Shown piece by piece: positions 30,781 through 59,985 of a stretch of 64,000 nucleotides of DNA. Every line of letters starts with the position of its first letter. Position 1 is the stretch's first letter. This stretch comes from Actinomycetes bacterium (GTDB taxonomy: Bacteria; Bacillota; Sulfobacillia; Sulfobacillales; JAIMBI01): the NCBI GenBank assembly GCA_023565505.1, contig JAIMBI010000006.1:3885-67884 (forward strand), read 5' to 3'. The notes under the pieces were generated by a model. It was given only the letters and a program-made list of their open reading frames with translations, was not told where the DNA came from and made no database searches. The translations under genes were made by a program, and so were the position numbers.

Positions 30781-32534
30781 TCACGCCGACGGACGGCGTG
30801 CCGCCACGTACTCCAACGGATCGTCCCCGCTCCAGTCGGCGGGCTTTGTCTTCGGCCACAGTTCGTCCACCCGGCGCAGCACCTGCTCGATGGTCGGATT
30901 CCGTTCGGCTTCGGGCAGGCCCCGCACCATGATCTCGAGGTAACCGCCCTGACTCAGGAGGGCACGCAAGGACCAGAGGTCCGTGAACGCCATGGTCATA
31001 AGGGCCTCTGCCCGTCGCTCCACCACAAGACCGCCCCATTCCAGGTAGGCGGCCAGCTCTCCGGGCTCCGGCGCGAAGTGGCGGAACGGCAGACGGTGGC
31101 GGGCGAGGGCCTCCCGGATCGGTTCCAACGCCTCCTGCCACGCCGGCGGCCAGGTGAAGGCGAGGGCGGTGCTGAGCACGACTCGGCCCCCCGGAAGCAA
31201 CACCCGGTAGATCTCCTTGACCGTGGTCTGCGGATCGCACAGGTGCCAGAAGAGGGCACCGACCACGAGGTCCGCGCTTTCGGCCAGGATCGGGAGCCGC
31301 TCGGCGAACGCCTCGATCCCGCTGACCCAGTGCGCGTTCTCCTGGGCAGCCCGCCGCAAGGCTTGGCGGAGCAGGGCGGGTGAGGGGTCGGTGAGCAGCA
31401 GCACCCCCTCGGGGCCGATGCGCCGGGCCAGGCCGCCGTCAAAGGCGATCCGGCCGGCTCCGGCTCCCAGCTCGACGGCGGCGACGCCCGGTTCGGGGTC
31501 CATGAAGTCGACGAACTGTCGGGCCTCCTCGACGCTCTGAATGTACTGTTTTTGGAACAGGGCGCCGAAGCTTCCGCCGAACTGCTCGCTGACCGGAGCA
31601 AGGGTCGTCTCCGCGTGGCGCAGCAGGTTCGGGCCGCTGCTCGCCGTGATGACCAGGCGCCCGCCGCGACGGCTGCGCAACACGACGCCCTTCTGCTCGT
31701 AGAGCCGTTCGTCGGCTTCCCTCACGGCCTGGCCCAGCGTGCCGGGCGTGTAGGCGGCCACGCCGAAACAGAGCGTCAGCGGACTCGGCCAATCGGCACT
31801 TCGGTCGCGCAAGAGGGCCTGGACCTGCTCGGCCCAGGCCTGCGCGTCGGCACCGGCCAGGCCCGGGAGCACGACCAGGAACTCGTCGCCCCCCATCGGA
31901 CGGCGAAGGCGGATTCAGGAAGCGCTTCGCGGAGGACCTCGCCCACCAAGGCGAGCGCTCGGTCGCCGCGCATGTGACCATACACGTGGTTCAGCCGCTT
32001 CAGGGCATCGAGGTCGAACAGCACGACCGATCCGGCGCCCCGGTCGAGCGCGGCGTACCGGATCTCCCAGGAACGGCGGTTCGCCAGGCCGGTGAGACTG
32101 TCCTCGAGTGCCCACGAGGGCCAGTCCGCGGCGCCGCCGGGGGACCGGTCGACGGCCGGGGCCATGACCCAGTACCAGTCGCGGCGGAAGGGCACCATCC
32201 ACCCCCGGACGCGTGCCACTTCGCCTTCGCCGCCCCGCCCGCGCACACGGCAGGCGACGGCCTCGCCCCGATGGAACGCGTCGCTGAGCAGGTCCCACAC
32301 GGGCCCGTCATGGCGGCGAAGCGGGGCCAACCCGAAGACGTCGACCACCGGCAACCCGAGGACCTGCTCCGGTGACAGGTTCCACCGGGTCAGGGCCCGG
32401 TCGTTGAGGGCGGCGATCCGTCCGTCGGTGGTCGCGATAATAATCGGCCAAGGCAGGGCGCGATACACGATGTGCGCGACATCGTCGTCCGTCAGCGGGG
32501 TCAGGACCCGCTCTGGTTCCGACTGCGACGTTAT
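30781..32534 (-). pseudogene. PAS-GGDEF-class I SAM methyltransferase fusion, frameshifted inside the GGDEF codons
   Basis: Frame 1: PAS-like, D.LTGL.NRR, FDLD.LK.LN..YGH..GD, AVRW; frame 2: GGDEF...ADERLYEQK then VELGAGAG methyltransferase; 6-G run at 31889-31894. Confidence 0.8.
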
Positions 32535-48706: not shown

Positions 48707-49420
48707 ATGAGAGACAGAGTCGCCGAGGGACGCGGCAGTGCCCCGCTGGCCAAGTACGTTGGGTTGCTCGACCTCCTGGCGGCCGGCGGGCCGGCGACGC
48801 CCGCGGAGCTGGTGACGCGGACCGGCTTGGCCCGTCCGACGGTCTATCGGTTGCTGGCCAATCTCGAAAACCTGGGGCTGGTGCGGCGGGATGGCACGGG
48901 GGCGGTCCGCCTGGGCCTCCGGCTCATCCGGTGGGGACAGGCGGCGCTGGACCTCGACGTCGTCCAGGTGAGCCGTCCCGTCATGACCGCGCTGCACCAG
49001 CAGACGGGGGAGAGTGTCCAACTGTATGTGCCCGACGGGGATGCGCGCGTCTGCGTGATGGCGGTCGACCGGGGTGCGGGACTTCGGGACACGGTGCCGG
49101 TAGGGGCCCGTCTGCCGCTGGACCGGGGATCGGCCGGCAAGGTGCTCCGGGCCTTCGGGGCGGTCCGGGTCGCCTCGGAGGACGACCCGGAGCTGGCGGC
49201 GATCCGCCGGCAGGGATACGCCGAGAGCGTGGCCGAACGGGAACCGGGGGTGGCGAGCGTGAGCGCCCCCATCCGCGATCCGTTGGGGGTTGTGGTCGCG
49301 GCCATCTGCGTGAGCGGTCCGCTGAGCCGGCTCGGGCCGTCGCCCGGGGCCCGGTTCGCCGATGCCGTCGTGGAGGCAGCCCGGCAGGTGGAGGCGGCCT
49401 GGGCGCGCCGCGAGCGGTGA
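48707..49420 (+). CDS. IclR-family transcriptional regulator
   Basis: HTH GLARPTVYRLL; TGESVQL, VGARLPL..GSAGKVL, EREPGVASVSAP, SGP. Confidence 0.93.
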   Translation: MRDRVAEGRGSAPLAKYVGLLDLLAAGGPATPAELVTRTGLARPTVYRLLANLENLGLVRRDGTGAVRLGLRLIRWGQAALDLDVVQVSRPVMTALHQQTGESVQLYVPDGDARVCVMAVDRGAGLRDTVPVGARLPLDRGSAGKVLRAFGAVRVASEDDPELAAIRRQGYAESVAEREPGVASVSAPIRDPLGVVVAAICVSGPLSRLGPSPGARFADAVVEAARQVEAAWARRER

Positions 49421-49435: not shown

Positions 49436-50311
49436 TCACGCCCCGCGACGAGGCGGCGCGCCGGTCGGACGGGCGAGGGGGAGGGAAAAGGCCGTGAACT
49501 CCGCGGCACCGCTGGCCAGGAAGGATCGGTTGGCGGCCCGCTTGGCCTCGAACACCGTGTGGGCGGCGTCGCGGAAAGCGGGCGGGAAGCCCAGGCTTTC
49601 CCCCTCGGCCAAGCGGGTCAGGATGCGGCGATAGGCCGCCTCGGCCCGCCGGCCCGCGTCCGGCCTGTGGGAGAGGGAGTCGGCCCGCACGCGGTAGACG
49701 TGCAACGGTTCGGGACACAACCAGGCGGCGCCGCCCGCGCGGGCCAGGGCCCCCAGGTTGAACAGGACGTCCTCGGCGAAGTCGACGGCCGGATCGAAGG
49801 GCCGTACCCAGTCCCGGTGGATGAGCGGGAAAAGAGGATGGTTCACCGCGGCGATGTCCCAGAAGTCCACCCGGCGGGGATCCGGCGGCGAGTCCGGGAG
49901 CAGCGGGCCGCGGGGCGCGTCGTGGGCGTCGTCCCAGCGGAGGATGTTGTCGAAGGCGATGCCGTCGTGGCGGGCCAGCTCCAGGAGGCGCTCGAGCTTG
50001 GCCGCGTGCCACCAGTCGTCGGCGTCAAGCACCGTAATCCATTCGCCGCGGGCGACGCGGAGCGCCGCGTTGCGGGCGACCGACGGACCGCGGGCCACCC
50101 CGCCCGAGTCCAGGAAGCGGATCCGGGGATCGGGGGGGAGCGACGGGCGATAGTCGGTGCCGTCGTCGGACACGACCAAAAGCTCCCAGTCGGATCGCGA
50201 CTGGGCTAAGACGCTCCGGACGGCCCGGCCGATGGTGGCGCCGGCCCGGTACGCCGCGAGCAGCACCGAAACCGCGGGACGCCGCAGGGCGACATCGACC
50301 CGGTCGCTCAT
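49436..50311 (-). CDS. glycosyltransferase family 2
   Basis: VSVLLAAY, SVLAQ...WEL.VVSDDG, GPSVARN, LDADD, ED; ATGA-coupled to upstream kinase. Confidence 0.9.
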   Translation of the reverse strand: MSDRVDVALRRPAVSVLLAAYRAGATIGRAVRSVLAQSRSDWELLVVSDDGTDYRPSLPPDPRIRFLDSGGVARGPSVARNAALRVARGEWITVLDADDWWHAAKLERLLELARHDGIAFDNILRWDDAHDAPRGPLLPDSPPDPRRVDFWDIAAVNHPLFPLIHRDWVRPFDPAVDFAEDVLFNLGALARAGGAAWLCPEPLHVYRVRADSLSHRPDAGRRAEAAYRRILTRLAEGESLGFPPAFRDAAHTVFEAKRAANRSFLASGAAEFTAFSLPLARPTGAPPRRGA

Positions 50312-51720
50312 GACCCGGCCAGGCGGACGCCCCCGGCCGGAGCGTGGCCGGACGGCACGAAGGGGGCGACGAGTTCGACCACGGTCCCGGACCCCGGACG
50401 GCTTCGGACGACGAACTGCCCCCCGAGCTCCTCCGCCCTCTGGGCGAGGTGCTTCAATCCGAAGTGACCCGGGGCGGCCGGTGCCTCCGGCGAGAATCCG
50501 ACGCCGTCGTCCTCCACCGTGATGCGGAACCGCTCGTCCTCCCCCCGCCACGTGATCTCGATGCGCTCGGCGTGGGCGTGGCGCGCGACGTTGGTGAGCG
50601 CCTCCCGGATCCACGCGAGGACGTTGTCGCGTTGCCGCGGACTCAACTGGTCGTACTGGCGGTCGCTGGTGTGAATCCGGGTCATGCCTTTGAGGCCCAG
50701 CTCCGCCACGATGGCGTTCACCGACTGGAGCCAGTCCTGCTGCTCCTGCTTGAGGTCGAAGATGTAGTGGCGAATGTCGCTGGTGATCCGGCTCAGGCGA
50801 TCGCCCAGGTCGTCCAGGATGTCCCGCAGCTCACGCTGCTCGGGCGGGATCTTCGGCAGGAGCGTGTCGATGGTCAGCATGACGCCGTACAGCGACTGGA
50901 TCGTGCCGTCGTGCAGGTCCATGCCGATGCGCTGGCGTTCCTCGATGACCGCGAGGCGTTCGAGTTCGTTGTTGAGCCGCGCATTCGAGATGAGGACCGC
51001 CGCCTGCCCGGCCAACAGCGCGACGAGCTCCTCGTCGTCCTCCGTGAACGGTCCCTGGGCCTTGTCGGTGAGATAGAGGTGCCCGACCACCTGTTCGCGG
51101 AAGAGCACCGGCATGCCGAGGAAGCTGGTCATCTCGGGGTGGTTCGGCGGCCAGCCCACGGAGGCGGGGTGCTCGCGGATGTTGGCCACCCGGAGCGGTC
51201 GGCGGGTGCGGATGACTTCGCCCAGGAGACCGCGGCCCCGGGGCAGCGAGCCGATGGCCCGGACCTGCTCCGTGGAGAGCCCGGACGTGATGAACCGGGC
51301 GATGGTCTCGTCGGGATTGAGGACCGCCAGCGCGCCGTAGCGGGCCCCGGTGAGCTCGCGGCTCAGCTGCACGACACGCTGCAGGATGCCTTCCCAGTCG
51401 CGGTCCTCCGCGATGGTGGTCATGGCCTCCTGCAGGAGGCGCAGGCGGTCGCGCTGTTGCTCGGTGGTCGCCAGAAGGCGCGCGAGTTCCGCGTACTGGG
51501 CCTTGATGCGGGTGAGGAAGCCGTGGGAGTAGAGCAGGGTGAGCACGATGGTCAGCCCGAAGATGACGGCGTCCGCCCGCGGCGTGGGCCAAAACCGGAC
51601 CAGCAGGAGGCGATCCACCAGCGCCAGGCCGATGAGGCCGCAGATCGGACTCAGGTAGGCCACCCAGTAACCCGCCCGGGTCAGCGGCGTGAGCAGCGGG
51701 GTCGTGGCGCGCGTGCTCAT
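50308..51720 (-). CDS. DosS/DevS-like GAF sensor histidine kinase (copy 1, 2 TM)
   Basis: ARYGALAV, P.G.GLLG, HPASVGWPPNHPEM.SFLG.P, LYLTDK, ER.RI..DLHD..IQ, EALTNVARHA, DDGVG, GL. Confidence 0.9.
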   Translation of the reverse strand: MSTRATTPLLTPLTRAGYWVAYLSPICGLIGLALVDRLLLVRFWPTPRADAVIFGLTIVLTLLYSHGFLTRIKAQYAELARLLATTEQQRDRLRLLQEAMTTIAEDRDWEGILQRVVQLSRELTGARYGALAVLNPDETIARFITSGLSTEQVRAIGSLPRGRGLLGEVIRTRRPLRVANIREHPASVGWPPNHPEMTSFLGMPVLFREQVVGHLYLTDKAQGPFTEDDEELVALLAGQAAVLISNARLNNELERLAVIEERQRIGMDLHDGTIQSLYGVMLTIDTLLPKIPPEQRELRDILDDLGDRLSRITSDIRHYIFDLKQEQQDWLQSVNAIVAELGLKGMTRIHTSDRQYDQLSPRQRDNVLAWIREALTNVARHAHAERIEITWRGEDERFRITVEDDGVGFSPEAPAAPGHFGLKHLAQRAEELGGQFVVRSRPGSGTVVELVAPFVPSGHAPAGGVRLAGS

Positions 51721-52397
51721 GGCGAGCCGGCCGGCTTCCTCTCCTGGGCCTCGCGCCGGGCGAGGTAGGCCGCCGCCTCGGCGCGGCGGTTGAGACCCAG
51801 CTTGGACAGGATGTTGCTGACGTAGTGCTTGACGGTCTTCTCGCTCAGGTAGACCTGCTCGCCGATCTCCCGGTTGGTGAGCCCCGCGGCGATGAGCTCC
51901 AGGATGCGGCGCTCCTGCTCCGTGAGGTCGTCCAACGGGTCGTGGGGGACGTTCCGCGTGGTCGCCCGCCGGAGCACCTTGTCGGCAACCGCCGGATCCA
52001 GGATGGAGCCGCCCTGCGCGACCGTGCGCACGGCGTCCAACACCGTCCGTCCCCGCGCATTCTTGAGGAGATAGCCGGCGGCACCGGCTTCGAGGGAGCT
52101 GAACAGCAGATCGTCGTCCCCGAAGGACGTCAGCATGATGACGTGCGTGTCGGGCTGCGCCGCCTTCCACTGCCGACACACGTCGACACCGGACCCGTCG
52201 GGCAGACGGATGTCCAGGAGCAACACGTCGACGGGGGTCGACCGCATCAGGCGCAGGGCCTCCTCCACCGTACCCGCTTCCCCCACCATGCGGCAGTCCG
52301 GCTCCTGGTTCAGGAGTTCCGCCAAGCCCACGCGGACCACTTCGTGGTCGTCCACCACGGCCACGCGGATCGGCTCACCCTCGGGCATGCTGGCCAT
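51717..52397 (-). CDS. DosR/DevR-like NarL-family response regulator (copy 1)
   Basis: VDDHEVVRVGL, LDIRLPDGSG, LTSF, GYLLK, LTNREIG..VYLSEKTVKHYVS. Confidence 0.93.
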   Translation of the reverse strand: MASMPEGEPIRVAVVDDHEVVRVGLAELLNQEPDCRMVGEAGTVEEALRLMRSTPVDVLLLDIRLPDGSGVDVCRQWKAAQPDTHVIMLTSFGDDDLLFSSLEAGAAGYLLKNARGRTVLDAVRTVAQGGSILDPAVADKVLRRATTRNVPHDPLDDLTEQERRILELIAAGLTNREIGEQVYLSEKTVKHYVSNILSKLGLNRRAEAAAYLARREAQERKPAGSP

Positions 52398-52638
52398 GCT
52401 TGTTCCCCTCCGGTAGGTTCCGCTCGCACTTACGCCGGACGTCTCGATCTTCAGCATACCATGGCAAATTCCCGCGCGTGAAGGAAAGCGGCGGCGCCCG
52501 CCGGAGCTTCCTCCGGGGGGTCGTCCGGAAACCCCGATGGTGGTCGTTCGGCTCGGCGCAGGGCGCCTGCCGGTCCGTACGATGCAGCGGGCGGGGATAT
52601 CCGGAGCGCCCGGCCACGGGCGTCGGGAGGGTCGGAGA

Positions 52639-53217
52639 ATGTCATCACAGGACGCGGCGACGGTGTCGTCCCGATGGCTCGAGGCGATGGCGGCCTCGGT
52701 GCGCGAGGTGGTGCTCGGCGTCAACGACGGTCTGGTGTCCATCACGGGCCTGGTGGTCGGCGTGGGGGCGTCGGGGATGGCCGCCCGGTTGGTGTTGCTG
52801 GCGGGACTGGCGGCCACGGCCGCGGCCACGGTGTCGATGGCGGTCGGGACCTACCTGGCGGCCGCCGCCGAGTATGAGTATCGGAGGGCGCGCGGGGAAC
52901 GGGCGGCGGCGTCGCCGGGCGGGGGAGCCGGGCCCGGCCCGGCGGTCCGGGCGGCCGTGATGGGCCTGGCCGTCGTCTTGGGGTCCCTTCCGCCTTTGCT
53001 GCCGTTTCTGCTGCCGTTGGCGCCGGGCGAGGCCTTGGGGGCCGCCGTGATCCTGGCCGCGGTCGCCGCCTTCGGGTTGGGGGTGGCCAAAGGCCGACTG
53101 ACGCGCACGGCACCGTGGCGGGCCGGGATCGTCTTCGTCGGGGCGGCCGCGTTCGCGGCCGGGTGCGGCATGCTGGTGGGCCGTCTGCTCGGGGGGCTTC
53201 CCGTGACCGGCGCTTGA
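52639..53217 (+). CDS. VIT1/CCC1-family metal transporter (short form)
   Basis: REVVLGVNDGLVS, SMAVG.YL, G..PPLLPF, G..K motifs. Confidence 0.88.
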   Translation: MSSQDAATVSSRWLEAMAASVREVVLGVNDGLVSITGLVVGVGASGMAARLVLLAGLAATAAATVSMAVGTYLAAAAEYEYRRARGERAAASPGGGAGPGPAVRAAVMGLAVVLGSLPPLLPFLLPLAPGEALGAAVILAAVAAFGLGVAKGRLTRTAPWRAGIVFVGAAAFAAGCGMLVGRLLGGLPVTGA

Positions 53218-53388
53218 CGGGGACAGCGTGGCGGCCGGGGACGACGGCTCCGGGCGGACGGTCCACCCTGTGGCGCCGGGCCCGTCAGGGCCGGCCGTCC
53301 GGCAGGAACTTCGTCCGCCGAGCCGAACCCTTACGACACCGGCCCGGGAGCGCCGGCAGCCGGGGACGCGCGGAGGCCGCACACACGC

Positions 53389-53961
53389 ATGTCCGAAGAG
53401 GACCGGGAACGTTGGAATGCCCGATATCGGGCCGGCCACGGACCCCGGGGTCTTCCCGACCCCGAGGTGGTCCGGTGGGTAGGAACGGTGCCGCCCGGCG
53501 GGCGCGCCTTGGACGTGGCCGCCGGCACGGGCCGGCATGCGCTCTGGCTCGCGGAGCGCGGCTGGATCGTCGACGCCGTCGACGTCTCCGAGGTGGCGTT
53601 GTCCGAGCTGGGCCGTGAAGCCGAGGCGCGGGGCGTCCCGGATCGCATCCACATCATTTGGGCCGACCTCGACGACTGGTCCCCGCCGCCGGGGCGGTAC
53701 CGCCTCGTCGTCATGGCGTTCTTCGTGGACCGGCCGCTGCTGGACCGTCTCGATCTCGCCCTGAAGCCCGGCGGTTTCCTGTTCTGCCGGTCGTTCCTGG
53801 AGCATTCCCCCCTGCTGGCCCACAATCCCGGCCACGCGTGGCGGCCGGGAGAGCTCGGGGAACGGTTCGCCCACTGGCGCATCCTCCACCTGCACGAATC
53901 CGCCAAGACGGCGCTCGTGACCTTGTGGGCGCAGAAACCGCCCGCCGAGTCCGGCCGGTGA
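53389..53961 (+). CDS. class I SAM-dependent methyltransferase (TehB-like)
   Basis: W..RY, ALDVAAGTGRHALWLA.RG..V.AVD.S, ADLD, LKPGG. Confidence 0.88.
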   Translation: MSEEDRERWNARYRAGHGPRGLPDPEVVRWVGTVPPGGRALDVAAGTGRHALWLAERGWIVDAVDVSEVALSELGREAEARGVPDRIHIIWADLDDWSPPPGRYRLVVMAFFVDRPLLDRLDLALKPGGFLFCRSFLEHSPLLAHNPGHAWRPGELGERFAHWRILHLHESAKTALVTLWAQKPPAESGR

Positions 53962-53981
53962 TCTCTCGGGCACCGGCGCAA

Positions 53982-54087
53982 GGACCGAACGGCCCATCCC
54001 CGGATGGGCCATCCGCCCGGGTTGGGCCCACGACAAACGGCCCTATGGACTGCCGCCCTCCGCCCCTACGCTAGGGCCAAGCGACCG
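53982..54087. promoter_or_regulatory. array of DosR-box-like palindromes upstream of oxidase subunit I
   Basis: GGACC-GAAC-GGCCC (53982), GGGCC-ATCC-GCCCG (54006), ACGAC-AAAC-GGCCC (54030), GGGCC-AAGC-GACCG (54074); first three spaced 24 bp. Confidence 0.5.
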
Positions 54088-54153
54088 GGGCCCGACGTGT
54101 CTCCGAGGGGTTCGATGCGGGCCTGCGAGGGTCGCTCGGGAGGGAACGGCCGG

Positions 54154-56055
54154 ATGGCGACGCTGGAACAAGCGGGCCACGGGTCGGTGGAGCCGGTACG
54201 CTCCGACCGTCGCGCATGGCTCTGGGATTGGCTGTCCGTCGTCGATCACAAACGGATCGGCCAGGTCTACATCCTGGCGGGCCTCTTCTTCTTGGCCGTG
54301 GGGGGCGTCGAGGCCTTCCTGATGCGGCTGCAGCTGTTCCGCCCCGACAACCACCTCGTCGGCGCGGAGGCCTTCAACGAGCTGTTCACCATGCACGGGA
54401 CCACGATGATCTTCCTGGCTGCGATGCCGCTCCTGACGGGATTCATCAACGTCGTGGTGCCGCTGCAGATCGGGGCGCGCGACGTGGCGTTCCCGCGGCT
54501 TAATGCCTTGAGCCTCTGGCTGTTCGTCGCGGGCGCCCTGCTGCTCAATTCCAGCTGGTTCCTCGGCGGCGCGCCCAACGCCGGATGGTTCAACTACGCA
54601 CCGATCAGCAACGTCGCCTACAACCCGGGCCACGCCATCGACTTCTACGACATCGGCCTGCAGATCACGGGCATCAGCTCGATGCTCACGGCCATCAACT
54701 TCCTGGTGACGATCATCAACCTCCGGGCGCCCGGCATGACCTTCATGCGGCTGCCGATGTTCGTCTGGACCACCATCGTCACCATGATCCTGATTCTCTT
54801 CGCGTTTCCGCCGCTCACGGTCAACCTGTTCCTGCAGACGTTCGACCGGCTCTTCGGCGCGCAGTTCTTCAACGCCGCCACGGGGGGCAGCCCGCTCCTG
54901 TGGGCCAACCTGTTCTGGATCTTCGGCCACCCCGAGGTCTACATCGTGGTGCTGCCGGCCTTCGGGATGATCTCGGAGGTCGTGCCGGTGTTCTCCCGCA
55001 AGCCCCTGTTCGGCTACGCCAGCATGGTCCTGGCGACGTTGGCCATCGGGTTCCTCTCGTTCATGGTGTGGGTGCACCACATGTTCACCCTGGGTTACGG
55101 GCCGTGGATCAACGCCACGTTCGCGCTGTCCTCCATGCTCATCGCCGTGCCCACGGGGGTGAAGGTCTTCAACTGGCTCGCCACGATGTGGGGCGGGCGG
55201 ATCCGGTTCACCGTGGCCATGCACTGGGTGGTCGCGTTCCTCGTCTGCTTCGTCATCGGGGGCATGAGCGGCGTCATGCTGGCCATGGCGCCGGCGGACC
55301 TGCAGTTCAACAACAGCTATTTCGTGGTGGCGCACTTCCACTACACCCTCATCGGCGGCGTCGTCTTCGGGATCTTCGCCGGACTGTACTACTGGTACCC
55401 GAAGATCACGGGGCGGCTGCTCGACGAGCGGCTCGGCAAGTGGAGTTTTTGGCTGGTGTTCCTGGGGTTCAACACGACGTTCTTCCCCATGCACTTCCTG
55501 GGCATGCTCGGCATGCCCCGCCGCATCTTCACCTACGGGGCCGGCCTCGGGTTCACGCTGTGGAACCAGGTGGCGACGGCGGGGGTCTTCGTGATGGCGG
55601 CGGGTGTCGTCCTGCTCCTCGTCAACCTCGCCGTGTCGTACCGTCGGGGGGCCCTCGCCGGGGCGGATCCGTGGGACGGACGGACGCTCGAGTGGGCCGT
55701 CAGCTCCCCGCCGCCGCCGTACAACTTTGCCCGCCTGCCGCTGGTGCGGGGTTACGACGCCTACTGGACGGAGAAGATCCACGGCGACGGCCGGCTGCTG
55801 CCCGCGCCCGAGCCGGCCGCGGCGCATGCGCCGCCGGGCACGGTCCACATGCCGAGCCCGACGCTGGTGCCGGCGGTCCTGGCGCTGGCGGTGCTCATGG
55901 CCGGTTACGGCCTCATCTTCCACTGGCTGTGGCTTGACCTGGTCGGGTTCGGACTCCTGGCGGCGGCGCTCCACCGGTCCATGTTCACGCCCGACCCCGG
56001 CGTGTATGTCCCCATAGCCGAAGAGGAGGCCGGGACGGCGGTCCGCACCGACTGA
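54154..56055 (+). CDS. ctaD: cytochrome c oxidase subunit I (A1-type heme-copper oxidase)
   Basis: DHKRIG, HGTTMIF, GHPEVY, WVHHM, PTGVK, AHFHY, GMPRR; lacks quinol-oxidase R/D residues in helix I (VGGVEA). Confidence 0.95.
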   Translation: MATLEQAGHGSVEPVRSDRRAWLWDWLSVVDHKRIGQVYILAGLFFLAVGGVEAFLMRLQLFRPDNHLVGAEAFNELFTMHGTTMIFLAAMPLLTGFINVVVPLQIGARDVAFPRLNALSLWLFVAGALLLNSSWFLGGAPNAGWFNYAPISNVAYNPGHAIDFYDIGLQITGISSMLTAINFLVTIINLRAPGMTFMRLPMFVWTTIVTMILILFAFPPLTVNLFLQTFDRLFGAQFFNAATGGSPLLWANLFWIFGHPEVYIVVLPAFGMISEVVPVFSRKPLFGYASMVLATLAIGFLSFMVWVHHMFTLGYGPWINATFALSSMLIAVPTGVKVFNWLATMWGGRIRFTVAMHWVVAFLVCFVIGGMSGVMLAMAPADLQFNNSYFVVAHFHYTLIGGVVFGIFAGLYYWYPKITGRLLDERLGKWSFWLVFLGFNTTFFPMHFLGMLGMPRRIFTYGAGLGFTLWNQVATAGVFVMAAGVVLLLVNLAVSYRRGALAGADPWDGRTLEWAVSSPPPPYNFARLPLVRGYDAYWTEKIHGDGRLLPAPEPAAAHAPPGTVHMPSPTLVPAVLALAVLMAGYGLIFHWLWLDLVGFGLLAAALHRSMFTPDPGVYVPIAEEEAGTAVRTD

Positions 56056-56101
56056 CCCGGCGGCCCGGCCCCACATCCACACGAAGAAGCAGGAGGATCA
56101 C

Positions 56102-56935
56102 GTGTTACGCGTACACCCGCAGCTCAAGGACGAGCGTCTTCTGGCCCTGTTCGAACGGGGCGTGGAGCGGCAGTGGCCGAGCGCCCTGCTGGACTGGAGC
56201 CAGGAGGAACGGTGGGATCGGCGGGACTTGGAAGCCCTGGCGGCCATCATCACGCCCGTGTACCTGGGGGAACAGACGGCCATGCTGGGGGTGAGCGCCA
56301 TCCTGCCGCGGCTGTTGACCGCAGGCGAGACGGAAGCCGCACTGTACCTGGCGAGCATGGGCCTGGACGAAGCCCGGCACTTCCGCAACCTCTCGCGGTT
56401 CTTCGACCGCCACCAGGTTACCCCCTGGCCCACCCGGCGGCTGCCCGAGATGTGGCGCTACCACGCGCGACTCTTGCAGAGCGGGGATCCGATCGACTGG
56501 CTATGGGGCATCCTCATCAGCGATCTGTTCGCGCGGCTGTTCTACGGCCGGCTGCGGGAACAGTATCCCGACCTCTTGATTGGCCGATTGGCTCGCCGGA
56601 CCCTGGTCGACGAGGCGCGCCACCAGGCGTTCGCCGACCGTTACCTCACGCCGCGGCTGGTTGGGGTGGACGCGGAGCGGCGCCGTGAGCTCTTAGGGCT
56701 CCGCGACGACCTGTTCCGGACCATGGATGCCTTGACGCACCGGTTGGCCGGTCCGCTGGGGGATCTGGGCTGGTCCGGCACGGCCTTCCTCGCCGAGCTG
56801 TGGGACGACACGGAGCGGTGGGCGGGACGCCTGGGTTTGACGGACGCGGGGGCGACGCCCGCGGCCTGGCGGGACGGGGAGGATCAGGAGAGCAAGAGCG
56901 CGAAGGGCGCTGTGAGTTCGACGCGCGTGCCCTGA
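56102..56935 (+). CDS. ferritin-like di-iron four-helix-bundle protein
   Basis: GE...DEARH ... D ... DEARH paired ExxH motifs; AGGAGG RBS. Confidence 0.8.
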   Translation: MLRVHPQLKDERLLALFERGVERQWPSALLDWSQEERWDRRDLEALAAIITPVYLGEQTAMLGVSAILPRLLTAGETEAALYLASMGLDEARHFRNLSRFFDRHQVTPWPTRRLPEMWRYHARLLQSGDPIDWLWGILISDLFARLFYGRLREQYPDLLIGRLARRTLVDEARHQAFADRYLTPRLVGVDAERRRELLGLRDDLFRTMDALTHRLAGPLGDLGWSGTAFLAELWDDTERWAGRLGLTDAGATPAAWRDGEDQESKSAKGAVSSTRVP

Positions 56936-58269
56936 CCGGGCCGGCTCGCGAGCGCGAACGTGCCCCCCAGGTCCCGGGCCCGCCGGGCGAGGTGCTGCAG
57001 GCCGAAGTGCCCGGGGGGAGGCGGCTCCTCCGGGACGAACCCCACGCCGTCGTCCTCGACGATCACGCGGAACTGCTCGCCTTCCGCCCGCCAGGTGACG
57101 TCCACCCGGTCGGCGTGGGCATGACGGGCGACGTTGGCGAGCGCTTCGCGCAACCACCCCAGGACGGTCTCGCACTGGCGCGGGGACAGATCGCCGAAGC
57201 GGCGGTCCGCGGCGTGGATGTAGGTCCGATCCGCCAGCCCGAGGCTCCGCGCGATGCTCAGCACGGCCTCGGACCAGTCGTCCGAGGCGGACTTGAGGTC
57301 GAAGACGTAGTGGCGGATGTCGCCCGTGATCCGGGTCAGGCGGTCTCCCAGGTCGTCGAGGACGGCGCGGACGGCCGGGGGCGCGTCCGCAAAGCGGGTC
57401 AGGAGGGCGTCGATCCGGAGCATGACGCCGTAGAGGGATTGGATCGTCCCGTCGTGCAGCTCCATGCTGATCCGCTGGCGCTCCTCCACCACCGCCAGTC
57501 GCTCCAGCTCGCGGTTGAGGCGCGCGTTGGAGATGAGGACGGCGGCGTGGGACGCCATCAGGCCGACGAGATCCTCGTCGGCCTGGGTGAAGGGACCGTC
57601 CTGCTTGTTGGTCAGGTAGAGGTGGCCCACCACCTGGTTCCGGAAGAGGACGGGCATTCCGAGGAAGTTGGTGATGTCCGGGTGGTTCGGCGGCCAGCCG
57701 GCGGACCGCGGGTGCTGCCGGATGTCGTCCAACCGGATGGGCCGCCGGGTGCGGAGCACCTCGCCCAGCAGCCCATGGCTGCGCGGCAGGGACCCGATGG
57801 CCCGGATCTCCTCCGGGGAGAGGCCGGACGGGATGAAACGGGTCATGGTGCCTTCGGGCGAGAAGATCGCGAGGACCCCGTAGCGCGCGCCCGTGAGCGC
57901 CCGGCTCAGCTCGACGACCCGGCGCAGGATGAAGTCGACGTCCCGCTCCGTGGCGATACCGGTCATGGCCTCGTGCAGCAGGCGCAGCCGGTCGCGCTGG
58001 GCGCGCGTGATGGCGAGCAGTCGGGCCTGCTCGGCGTACTGGCGCTTGATCCGGCTCAGGAAGGCGTGCGAGTAGACCAGCGTGAAGAGCAGCGCGAGCA
58101 CCACGGTGGCGGTGTCGGCGTCGGCGACCGGCATGAGGCGGACCAGGACCAGGCGGTTGAGGACGGCGAGCAGCGTCAGGCCGGCCGCCGGGCCGCCGTA
58201 GGCCAGCCACTGGCCGGGTCCGGAGAAGGGATTGAGCTCCTGGAGGCGGGCGATCCACGGGTTCGTCAT
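56884..58269 (-). CDS. DosS/DevS-like GAF sensor histidine kinase (copy 2, 2 TM)
   Basis: HPRSAGWPPNHPDI.NFLG.P, LYLTNK, ELHDGTIQ, EALANVARHA, DDGVG; paralog of 50308..51720. Confidence 0.9.
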   Translation of the reverse strand: MTNPWIARLQELNPFSGPGQWLAYGGPAAGLTLLAVLNRLVLVRLMPVADADTATVVLALLFTLVYSHAFLSRIKRQYAEQARLLAITRAQRDRLRLLHEAMTGIATERDVDFILRRVVELSRALTGARYGVLAIFSPEGTMTRFIPSGLSPEEIRAIGSLPRSHGLLGEVLRTRRPIRLDDIRQHPRSAGWPPNHPDITNFLGMPVLFRNQVVGHLYLTNKQDGPFTQADEDLVGLMASHAAVLISNARLNRELERLAVVEERQRISMELHDGTIQSLYGVMLRIDALLTRFADAPPAVRAVLDDLGDRLTRITGDIRHYVFDLKSASDDWSEAVLSIARSLGLADRTYIHAADRRFGDLSPRQCETVLGWLREALANVARHAHADRVDVTWRAEGEQFRVIVEDDGVGFVPEEPPPPGHFGLQHLARRARDLGGTFALASRPGQGTRVELTAPFALLLS

Positions 58270-58940
58270 GGCCCCGCTTCGGATCCGGGGTACGTCGGTT
58301 CGCGGCGCGCCAGGTAGGCGGCGGCCTCCGCCCGCCGGGTGAGTCCCAGCTTGTCGAGGATGTTGCTGACGTAGTGCTTGACGGTCTTCTCGCTCAGGAA
58401 GATCCGCGCCCCGATCTCCCGGTTGGTGAGGCCCTGGGCGATGAGCGTCAGGATGCGCCGCTCCTGAGGCGTCAGCTCGTCCAGCGGATCACGGTGCGGG
58501 CGCGGCGCGCCGGCGCTGCGGAGCACCTTGGAGGCCACCGCCGGGTCGAGGATGGACCCCCCGTCGGCCACCGTGCGGATGGCTTCCAGGACGGTGCGGC
58601 CCCGGGCGTTCTTGAGGAGATAGCCCGCCGCCCCGGCTTCGAGGGCGGCGAAGAGGAGATCGTCGTCTCCGAACGAGGTCAGGATGATGATGTGCGTCGA
58701 GGGTTGGGTCTGGGCCCACTGCCGGCAGACGTCGATGCCCGACCCGTCCGGAAGGCGGATGTCGAGCAGCAGCACGTCGACCTCAGTCGACCGGAGCAGT
58801 TCGAGGGCCTCCTGCACGCTGCCGGCCTCGCCCACCAGTCGGAAGTCCGGCTGCGCCGCCAGAAGACCGGCCAGCCCCACGCGGACCACCTCGTGGTCGT
58901 CGACCACGGCGACCCGGACCACCGATCCTGCTTCCGCCAT
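58266..58940 (-). CDS. DosR/DevR-like response regulator (copy 2)
   Basis: VDDHEVVRVGL, LDIRLPDGSG, LSEKTVKHYVSNIL; paralog of 51717..52397. Confidence 0.93.
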   Translation of the reverse strand: MAEAGSVVRVAVVDDHEVVRVGLAGLLAAQPDFRLVGEAGSVQEALELLRSTEVDVLLLDIRLPDGSGIDVCRQWAQTQPSTHIIILTSFGDDDLLFAALEAGAAGYLLKNARGRTVLEAIRTVADGGSILDPAVASKVLRSAGAPRPHRDPLDELTPQERRILTLIAQGLTNREIGARIFLSEKTVKHYVSNILDKLGLTRRAEAAAYLARREPTYPGSEAGP

Positions 58941-58985
58941 GATGCGCACCTCCGTGCGTTGAAACCGTCCCGAGCCGGCGCCCTG

Positions 58986-59243
58986 TCACGAGGATTCGCG
59001 GACCTCCGTCCGCCATGCGCGGTTCTTGGCGATCCAGTCCCGGTCGAACGCCGGGACCTGCGCCTCGGGATAGATGGCGCCCACGGGGCAAACGGGTTCG
59101 CACTGCCCGCAGTCGGTGCACGCCAGCGGGTCGATGAGGCGGGTGAACCGGCCGCGCCGGATGGCGTTCGCAGGGCAGACCCGCTCGCATTCCGGCGTGA
59201 ACGTCATCTCGTTGATGCAGGCCGAGGTTACGACGTAGGCCAA
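58986..59243 (-). CDS. 7Fe-type ferredoxin (FdxA-like)
   Basis: MAYVVT..C....C..VCP..AI ... IDP..CTDCGQCEPVCPV.AIY; TTG start after GGAGGAG. Confidence 0.88.
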   Translation of the reverse strand: MAYVVTSACINEMTFTPECERVCPANAIRRGRFTRLIDPLACTDCGQCEPVCPVGAIYPEAQVPAFDRDWIAKNRAWRTEVRESS

Positions 59244-59535
59244 TGTCGGCGCTCCTCCCCCGTCCGGTCGGCTTGACGGGCGCCGTGCGGACGCTCGTCG
59301 TCTTCTTCACACTGGATCCGTCGACCGGGTTTGGTGAGGATCCAATGGCCCTGATTGAGAGGGTCGAACGACGCATCTTCCCGTCCCCGCCGTGTACGGC
59401 CGCCGGGCCCGAGGGCGGGCCGTCCGGCCTCCGGTCGTCCCGACTGAAGACCCTTCCCGACACGCGCGACAATTGCCGCAATGAGCTCAGGGAACCTGTC
59501 GGCCCCGGCGGGCACAAGATAGAGGGGAGGTACGC

Positions 59536-59985
59536 GTGATGCGGCTGGCTGACTTCAGGATCCTGCTGGCCTCCGACGACACGCCCGGGGCGCTCGTGGC
59601 GGTCGACTGGGTGCGTCGGCACTTCGAGCCGGCCCGGACGCGGGTCACCGTGGTCACCGTGCTGGTGCCGCCGCCGGCCCAGTGGGAAGCGGTCGCCGGC
59701 GCCCCCCTCTGGGCCGACGTCGCCGAGACGGACCTCGTGCCGGAGACCAAGGCGCGGCTCGCGGCCTTCACGCCGGACGTGATTGTCCGGCGCGGAGACC
59801 CGGTCCGCGAAATCCGGGCGGCGGCGGAGAGCGTGAGACCGGACCTCATCGTCATGGGACATCGCGGCCTGAAGGGGATCGAGCGGTGGATGATGGGGAG
59901 CGTCGCCAAAGGGGTGGTGGACGCGAGCGACTGCCCGGTGCTGGTCATCCCCGAGATCCGGCCGGGTCGCGCCCGAAGCGCCTGA
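59536..59985 (+). CDS. universal stress protein
   Basis: ILLA.D, GDP...I, DLIVMGHRG, MGSVA..VV..S.CPVLV. Confidence 0.93.
   Translation: MMRLADFRILLASDDTPGALVAVDWVRRHFEPARTRVTVVTVLVPPPAQWEAVAGAPLWADVAETDLVPETKARLAAFTPDVIVRRGDPVREIRAAAESVRPDLIVMGHRGLKGIERWMMGSVAKGVVDASDCPVLVIPEIRPGRARSA

Follow-up and report, generated by a model that had tools for sequence, protein, structure and literature searches.

We analysed a 64,000-nucleotide stretch of contig JAIMBI010000006.1 (the window), part of a 3.12 Mb, 71.5% GC genome assembly in 49 contigs whose host is a heat-loving spore-forming bacterium. Between positions 49,436 and 59,985 it contains two paralogous operons, each joining a response regulator (RR) to a sensor histidine kinase (HK) and here called RR1-HK1 and RR2-HK2, which resemble the DevS(DosS)/DosT-DevR system of Mycobacterium tuberculosis and the OsdK/OsdR system (SCO0203/SCO0204) of Streptomyces coelicolor. 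Both operons lie on the minus strand with an offset of 6,549 bp, and in both the stop codon of the regulator overlaps the start codon of the kinase as ATGA. Window GC is 70-72%, and reading frames in this high-GC DNA were set from open reading frames (ORFs), a frame plot of GC at third codon positions (GC3) and matches to Pfam and NCBIfam. The resulting features are as follows.

48707-49420, plus strand: IclR regulator
49436-50311, minus strand: GT2 glycosyltransferase (PF00535, 3.5e-20), third gene of the RR1-HK1 operon
50308-51720, minus strand: HK1, 470 aa, with two transmembrane (TM)-like segments, one GAF, HisKA_3 and HATPase_c; His194 and Tyr216
51717-52397, minus strand: RR1, DevR-like response regulator of NarL/LuxR type, from family matches and start-codon analysis
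51808-51849, minus strand: 42-bp stretch exactly matching 58357-58398 and coding for the recognition helix
52537-53217, plus strand: VIT1-family transporter (PF01988, 1.1e-25)
53389-53961, plus strand: S-adenosylmethionine-dependent methyltransferase (PF13649, 1.1e-11)
53981-53996: DevR/OsdR-type box AGGACCGAACGGCCCA, 15.7 bits, genome rank 3
54029-54044: weaker box CACGACAAACGGCCCT, 9.2 bits, 48 bp downstream of the box at 53981-53996
54154-56055, plus strand: orphan A-type heme-copper oxidase subunit I (COX1, CtaD/QoxB-like; PF00115, 5.7e-162; TIGR02891)
56102-56935, plus strand: ferritin-like di-metal carboxylate protein (R2lox/AurF-like fold), 46 bp behind COX1
56884-58269, minus strand: HK2, 461 aa, paralog of HK1, with one GAF, HisKA_3 and HATPase_c; His196 and Tyr218
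58266-58940, minus strand: RR2, DevR-like response regulator, likely start ATG at 58940
58986-59243, minus strand: FdxA-like 7Fe-type ferredoxin (PF00037 and Cys pattern), first gene of the Fdx-RR2-HK2 operon
59337-59375: tandem weaker boxes AGGATCCAATGGCCCT and AGGGTCGAACGACGCA, 9.7 and 7.3 bits, 23 bp apart
59536-59985, plus strand: universal stress protein (USP; PF00582, 1.6e-25), divergent from the Fdx-RR2-HK2 operon

This map agrees with a preliminary description of the DNA, which had placed two same-orientation pairs about 6.5 kb apart and had listed VIT1, methyltransferase, oxidase subunit I, di-iron protein, FdxA-like ferredoxin and USP genes between or beside them; all are present. 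The GT2 gene, absent from that description, is an addition, and the overlap of its ATG with the stop codon of HK1 points to translational coupling. The fdxA gene belongs to the mycobacterial DosR regulon; for the ferredoxin found here, all NCBIfam FdxA models score under their cut-offs. A 98-aa ORF at 59243-59539 has no family match in Pfam or NCBIfam and sits in the promoter region between the ferredoxin and USP genes; we have taken it as non-coding.

The two kinases are 64% identical (287/445). According to Pfam, each has a single GAF stretch (PF13185) followed, after about 15 residues, by HisKA_3 (PF07730) and HATPase_c (PF02518), and neither has a GAF-B domain. Two 19-aa windows with a Kyte-Doolittle mean of at least 1.6 fall within the first ~75 residues of each protein, with none later, predicting an N-terminal TM hairpin with a loop of about 6-10 residues. 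The architecture proposed earlier, of two N-terminal TM segments and a single GAF, is thus recovered, the TM segments as a prediction, and the DosS GAF-A motif HP.S.GWPPNHP is indeed found in both proteins, as HPASVGWPPNHPEM in HK1 and HPRSAGWPPNHPDI in HK2. Among solved structures, the HK2 GAF domain matches GAF-A of DosT (2vzw, 1.3e-32) and GAF-A of DevS (2w3d, 1.8e-31; 2y79, ~1e-31) best in phmmer, the next-best solved GAF domain reaching only 2.7e-11. Identity of the island GAF domains to GAF-A of DosT and DevS is about 45%.

In DevS, His149 is the proximal heme ligand and Tyr171 the O2-bonding residue, and a Y171F mutant loses discrimination among O2, CO and NO (PMC4082495). With DevS residue numbering anchored on the structure entries of E87 mutants, the equivalents of His149 are His194 in HK1 and His196 in HK2, while those of Tyr171 are Tyr216 and Tyr218, respectively. 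The hydrogen-bonding partners Glu87 and His89 of DevS are replaced, by Ala and Leu in HK1 and by Ala and Phe in HK2. DosT has Gly85 in place of Glu87, and E87A/G forms of DevS give a stable oxy complex (PMC4082495), so that both island kinases look DosT-like at this position; since they share the same Ala there, the sequence predicts no difference in affinity between them. The pattern extends to an alignment of 44 family members, 33-89% identical to HK2, in which the distal Tyr is invariant (44/44), the proximal His is kept in 40 (a gap in three, Gln in one) and a small residue, Ala or Gly, stands at the Glu87 position in 39. TM-like N-terminal windows, one or more per protein, occur in 30 of the 44; the N-terminus of the remaining 14 is different, and five of them that were checked (P0037, P0040, P0043, P0070 and P0074) are receiver-fused or longer forms.

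GAF domains bind many different ligands, and the architecture of the island kinases, with one GAF, a membrane anchor and no Glu87/His89 network, is unlike that of DevS and DosT. The GAF domains might accordingly be heme-free, the cue being either a small molecule in the GAF pocket or the state of the membrane or quinone pool conveyed by the TM hairpin, and the link to oxidases a sign of redox or energy sensing instead of gas sensing; the gap or Gln in the His column of four of the 44 family members would fit such a reading. Against this stand the ~45% identity to heme-binding GAF-A domains, the conservation of both proximal His and distal Tyr, and a Glu87 position that in 39/44 members matches DosT Gly85 and the E87A/G DevS variants with their stable oxy complex (PMC4082495). 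We therefore regard heme-free sensing as improbable.

A third GAF-HisKA_3 kinase is encoded on contig C7 (141665-143469; locus L054:2166-3970). It is soluble, 390 aa long and 31% identical to HK2, has a LuxR-type regulator of its own and adjoins genes for the flavoprotein and [2Fe-2S] subunits of CO dehydrogenase. It retains the heme-ligand His, and its distal Tyr is replaced by Phe (LFLA), as in the Y171F mutant of DevS (PMC4082495). On these sequence grounds it could be a CO-related sensor.

RR1 and RR2 are 79% identical (165/210). The best PDB match of RR2 is full-length DevR (3c3w, 1e-54), followed by VraR (4e-41), and together with the GAF-A matches of the kinases this upholds the original view of the pairs as DosR/DosS-like. 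Asp54 of DevR, which we take to be the phosphorylation site, is kept in RR2, as are Lys179 and Lys182; Asn183, which with these two lysines presumably contacts bases, is replaced by His. The 42 bases at 51808-51849 and 58357-58398, whose identity had been pointed out previously, are exactly the same and encode LSEKTVKHYVSNI(L), as against an overall DNA identity across the pairs of 71%. Codons are identical at 99 of the 167 positions with the same residue (59%), and identical codons run on for at most 13 in a row, the second-longest run being 6. At a rough estimate of ~0.59^13 per start position, the 13-codon run exceeds what drift would be expected to leave, and it suggests either that gene conversion acted locally or that the recognition helix is under unusually strong constraint.

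The specificity with which kinases pair with regulators is set by residues of the dimerization and histidine phosphotransfer (DHp) helix and of regulator helix alpha-1. Between the two pairs there is little or no difference in the part of the DHp helix that follows the phospho-His (HDGTIQSLYGVML) or in alpha-1 (DDHEVVRVGLA). As their recognition helices are identical, RR1 and RR2 probably share DNA targets and, taken with the likeness of the DHp and alpha-1 helices, cross-talk is to be expected as well.

A DNA motif was derived by expectation maximization (EM), with a palindromic constraint and a width of 16, from 14 promoter regions of relatives, the window being excluded. The result, TGGGCCGATCGGCCCA, is a 16-bp palindrome of the form GGGCC-N4-GGCCC with a log-likelihood of 52.1, compared with 26.7-28.4 in three out of three shuffled sets. 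The 16-nt consensus given for OsdR is AGGGCCGATCGGCCCT, which conforms to the DevR element (PMC5069765), and its core is identical to the 14-nt core GGGCCGATCGGCCC of the EM motif; this comparison draws on the published consensus and the sites of Table 1 in that source (PMC5069765). Other motif forms were discarded. At widths 15 and 17, EM returned a palindrome out of register, which width 16 corrected, and its top sites in the genome mostly adjoined unrelated genes, those for phage tail, MerR, paaABCD and esterases among them. The M. tuberculosis-type core GGGAC-N4-GTCCC, allowing up to one mismatch, has 319 matches in the genome, 15 of them exact, and none in the island promoters, those near the island lying within or at the ends of coding regions; its half-site was too narrow. 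The top width-17 match, a near-perfect palindrome AGGGACCTTTGGTCCCT (C38:27395, locus L041), lies upstream of paaABCD, the phenylacetyl-CoA oxygenase, another di-iron O2-dependent enzyme.

Scanning the genome with the width-16 matrix places the box at 53981-53996, within the 192-bp spacer before COX1 (53962-54153), among only three sites of at least 15.7 bits in 3.12 Mb. The ferredoxin-USP spacer (59244-59535) has sites of 9.7, 7.3 and 5.8 bits, the first two forming the tandem pair ~95-120 bp upstream of the ferredoxin start, with a 22-23-bp tandem spacing that recurs in relatives. Away from the island, a 14.2-bit site (rank 13) lies ~150 bp upstream of cydA, encoding cytochrome bd subunit I, and three clustered sites of 12.8, 10.4 and 9.8 bits precede a second USP gene (C48:72343-72777). 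The same matrix detects no promoter box at the canonical cox loci C25 (COX2-COX1) and C29 (COX1-COX3), and nothing above 3.4 bits in the RR1-VIT1, VIT1-methyltransferase, COX1-di-metal, RR2-ferredoxin and USP-gerA spacers of the window. Since boxes precede oxidase subunit I, cytochrome bd and USPs, the output of the system is most likely respiratory remodelling. A GC3-based gene caller (2,195 genes, 71% coding) put 14 of the 36 sites of at least 13 bits in intergenic DNA, but these counts are rough and are given no weight here.

Some further sites deserve mention. A 15.0-bit box at 31785-31800 of the window (rank 6) falls within the 5' portion of a UbiE/COQ5-type methyltransferase ORF that is over-long (30781-31896, minus strand) and divergent to a 133-aa ORF without a Pfam family; the methyltransferase may be a further regulon member, possibly acting in quinone methylation. 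With 17.6 bits, the highest-scoring width-16 site of the genome (C7:225996, locus L135) is upstream of a gene for an AMP-binding, acyl/acetyl-CoA synthetase-like protein; one relative (L026) has a gene pair for acetyl-CoA synthetase and an acetate transporter divergent from its regulator.

Of 31 genomes searched in the order, 30 gave a kinase match at E <= 1e-30, a count that includes the genome of the window. Family-level relatives have one full-length ortholog, at times plus a second, N-terminally different copy. Named database relatives belong to Clostridia/Firmicutes metagenome-assembled genomes (MAGs), Sulfobacillus, Thermaerobacterales and Chloroflexota, while the best 80 loci in species-representative genomes are mostly from Chloroflexota MAGs. 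Database annotation of these relatives is generic, with a few called 'DevS' by orthology assignment.

The neighbourhoods of 20 relatives' loci were scored with the proteins of the window. The di-metal gene is the most frequent neighbour of the two-component system, being adjacent to it in seven loci (L023, L024, L030, L031, L036, L039 and L040); COX1 is within ~3 kb in four (L021, L025, L026 and L027) and a USP gene is divergent from the regulator in three (L022-L024). Pfam searches of 76 neighbouring ORFs add a COX2-COX1-COX4 operon in L026. Boxes recur in these settings: all six di-metal gene promoters that were scored have them, ~80-130 bp upstream and often as pairs 22-23 bp apart, and they also occur upstream of COX1 (L021), COX2 (L026) and the kinase (L030) and in RR-USP spacers. 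Tandem boxes before COX2 are seen again in L025 and L027, two loci on which the motif was not trained. Four Sulfobacillus-like loci (L032, L033, L037 and L038) have no box of at least 12.5 bits. One locus, L021 (G017:C38:6400-25600), presents the theme in compact form. Within 9 kb it combines an RR-HK pair and a lone DevR-like regulator with cydA, cydB, a SufT-like gene and an orphan COX1, the last preceded by a box.

The preliminary description had seen the whole island as a hypoxia regulon, with conservation of the neighbourhood as a check, and both points hold in part. Boxes are found upstream of the COX1/di-metal operon and, at lower scores, in the ferredoxin-USP spacer, and the di-metal, COX1 and USP genes recur in relatives' loci. 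No box was detected for VIT1, the methyltransferase or the RR1-HK1-GT2 operon, and searches of the 20 loci at E <= 1e-8 gave no counterpart of VIT1, the methyltransferase, GT2 or the ferredoxin. Only a part of the island can thus be predicted to form a regulon.

The relationship between the two pairs can also be viewed through synteny. The kinase of L023 and L024 faces a convergent di-metal gene and the regulator a divergent USP gene, an arrangement that matches pair 2 only, so that HK2-RR2 appears to be the positional ortholog of the single system of relatives. A quick tree, which contained no actinobacterial sequences, puts HK1 and HK2 in one clade of 16 without resolving them as sisters, the stem of HK2 being the longer. 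This raises the question of whether the pairs are insulated from each other, pair 2 being the ancestral oxygen or redox circuit and pair 1 having been recruited for the envelope glycosyltransferase or other targets, with no common regulon or two-threshold design. The translational coupling of GT2 to HK1, the lack of a box upstream of RR1, the fit of relatives' synteny to pair 2 only and the long HK2 branch after duplication would all be compatible with this. Insulation is nonetheless hard to reconcile with identical recognition helices, down to 42 identical bases, and with DHp and alpha-1 helices so alike that cross-talk is expected. On balance we think it unlikely, although the box-less, GT2-coupled pair 1 does argue for some divergence between the pairs.

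The ORF of the island COX1 opens at 54004 but the likely start is the ATG at 54154, behind GGGAGG, and the protein passes the curated subunit I (CtaD/CoxA) model TIGR02891 with 700.7 bits against a cut-off of 670.75. The genome has three A-type subunit I genes, and the island copy, which has no subunit II or III beside it, is 75% identical to that at C25, in an operon with COX2(cyt c), and 54% identical to that at C29, which is accompanied by COX3. Orphan isoforms of the catalytic subunits of terminal oxidases are known, for example the extra ccoN genes of Pseudomonas aeruginosa. The island COX1 is like these in being a stand-alone subunit I paralog with its own box-bearing promoter, but differs in being A-type (aa3/caa3-like) rather than cbb3. 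By analogy, we infer that the island COX1 may take part in subunit swapping.

The di-metal protein has no Pfam match and fails the curated NCBIfam test for R2lox, with 22.8 bits against a cut-off of 194. The 244 relatives found are named 'ferritin-like domain-containing' or hypothetical, and those at 45-50% identity carry PF11583 (AurF). Across 40 sequences E57, D89-E90-x-R92-H93, D141 and D170-E171-x-R173-H174 are invariant, and we read E57, E90/H93 and E171/H174 as a probable carboxylate-bridged two-metal site. An AlphaFold2 model (pLDDT, the predicted local distance difference test score, 85.9) has as its best structural match R2lox of M. tuberculosis (Rv0233, 3ee4; TM-score 0.70 over 260 columns), followed by aldehyde-deformylating oxygenases and the R2 subunit of ribonucleotide reductase. 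The fold and ligand pattern resemble those of R2lox, but the identity is 18% and the curated R2lox score is far under its cut-off. The protein is a predicted O2-activating ferritin-fold protein, which we do not assign to R2lox.

The preliminary description had inferred a different output, in which the system drives a non-sporulating dormancy programme like that of mycobacterial DosR, the two kinases setting two oxygen thresholds. An analogy to DosS and DosT can certainly be drawn: USP and FdxA-like genes, both classes of the DosR regulon, adjoin pair 2, and pair 2 is apparently autoregulated where pair 1 is not, recalling the inducible dosS and non-induced dosT (PMC4082495). The published account of OsdR likewise counts USPs in the DevR regulon (PMC5069765). 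However, targets of a dormancy type (alpha-crystallin, nitroreductases, triacylglycerol synthase) were not seen beside boxes among the top annotated sites, the best-supported targets are terminal oxidases, and the Ala that both kinases have at the Glu87 position gives no hint of two thresholds. The host, moreover, has what at gene level is a full sporulation route for dormancy. Spo0A (379 bits, cut-off 200), SpoIVA and gerA/gerC/gerB genes support its earlier designation as an endospore former. We consequently judge a dormancy programme with two thresholds to be very improbable. The window itself carries a gerA-gerC-gerB germinant receptor operon on the plus strand from 60273, 287 bp past the USP gene, and a second gerA, on contig C43, has a 14.7-bit box ~560 bp upstream.

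The reading that we favour, with a probability of about 0.62, is that the locus encodes two paralogous DevS/DosT-DevR (OsdK-OsdR)-type systems, in a minimal membrane-tethered form, which control respiratory remodelling with oxygen. Each kinase would be anchored by its N-terminal two-helix hairpin, with no outside sensor domain, and its one cytoplasmic GAF would bind heme b through the conserved His (H194 in HK1, H196 in HK2), with Tyr on the distal side. By analogy, autokinase activity would be set by binding of O2, NO or CO or by a change in the redox state of the iron. Phosphorylated RR1 and RR2 are predicted in silico to bind the 16-bp GGGCC-N4-GGCCC palindromes, the putative targets being COX1 with its di-metal partner, the Fdx-RR2-HK2 operon with the divergent USP gene, cytochrome bd and the second USP gene. 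Aerobic respiration and stress proteins would in this way be remodelled as oxygen changes. Pair 2 would be autoregulated, while the box-less pair 1 (RR1-HK1-GT2) may be constitutive.

Several points weigh against this picture. The TM hairpin is a prediction from hydropathy, and the sensor domains have lost the Glu87/His89 partners of DevS as well as the accompanying GAF-B. The boxes between ferredoxin and USP genes are weak, the 9.7-bit site being only rank 407 in the genome, and at VIT1, the methyltransferase and the RR1-HK1-GT2 operon no box is detectable (best <=2.8 bits). Many high-scoring sites are intragenic or beside unrelated genes (phage tail, MerR, paa, tuf-rpsJ); with such scatter in a 71.5% GC genome the matrix alone defines no clean regulon, and weight rests only on the coincidence of boxes with genes identified beforehand. 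Finally, contamination of the 49-contig assembly is estimated at 6.6%.

Comparison with the known systems brings out what is shared and what is new. With DevS/DosT-DevR of M. tuberculosis the island has in common GAF-A homology including the His149 and Tyr171 equivalents, the HisKA_3 and HATPase_c core, a regulator that among solved structures matches DevR best, a doubled sensor, neighbouring USP and FdxA-type genes and predicted boxes in the form of GGGxC-N4-GxCCC palindromes. In contrast, the mycobacterial kinases are soluble with tandem GAF-A and GAF-B, where the island kinases have one GAF and a predicted two-helix anchor; Glu87/His89 have given way to Ala and to Leu or Phe; each island kinase has its own copy of the regulator; DevR N183 is His in RR2; the GGGAC-N4-GTCCC box has no exact copy in the island promoters; and the host is a spore-forming member of the Bacillota with terminal oxidases as predicted targets. 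With OsdK/OsdR the island shares the box core and a clustering of USP genes around the regulator (PMC5069765), but phylum and kinase architecture differ and, while the OsdR targets reported include nitrate reductase and developmental genes (PMC5069765), the best boxes linked to the island system are those of the orphan COX1 and cytochrome bd. In the open-access literature searched we find no DosRS/DevRS-like system described in Sulfobacillus, Thermaerobacter, Limnochorda or Symbiobacterium-type Bacillota or in Chloroflexi. Our verdict is that the sequence points to a DevRS/OsdKR-type system with a new kinase architecture and in a new phylum.

To our knowledge, DosS/DosT-DosR has been studied almost only in mycobacteria and OsdKR in Streptomyces. 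Here, deep-branching thermophilic spore formers of the Bacillota appear to have conserved the protein pair together with its DNA box, and close relatives of the kinase are present in many Chloroflexota. This permits a broader and distinctly tentative proposal, which we consider possible without thinking it likely: that the DosRS circuit of heme-GAF kinase, DevR-type regulator and GGGCC-N4-GGCCC box is an old module across Terrabacteria (Actinomycetota, deep Bacillota and Chloroflexota), whose minimal form is single-GAF and membrane-tethered, and that in the present organism its duplicated pairs, one autoregulated and one constitutive, switch in an alternative aa3-type catalytic subunit and an R2lox-like protein when oxygen falls. 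If true, oxidase isoform swapping would be under direct heme-sensor control. The natural occurrence of a membrane-anchored form with one GAF would mean that the switch can do without GAF-B and solubility, and such a kinase would offer a small, probably thermostable model of a heme-GAF sensor. The recurrent R2lox-like di-metal protein and the terminal oxidases, for their part, provide leads on the role that the regulon may have had before its recruitment to mycobacterial dormancy.

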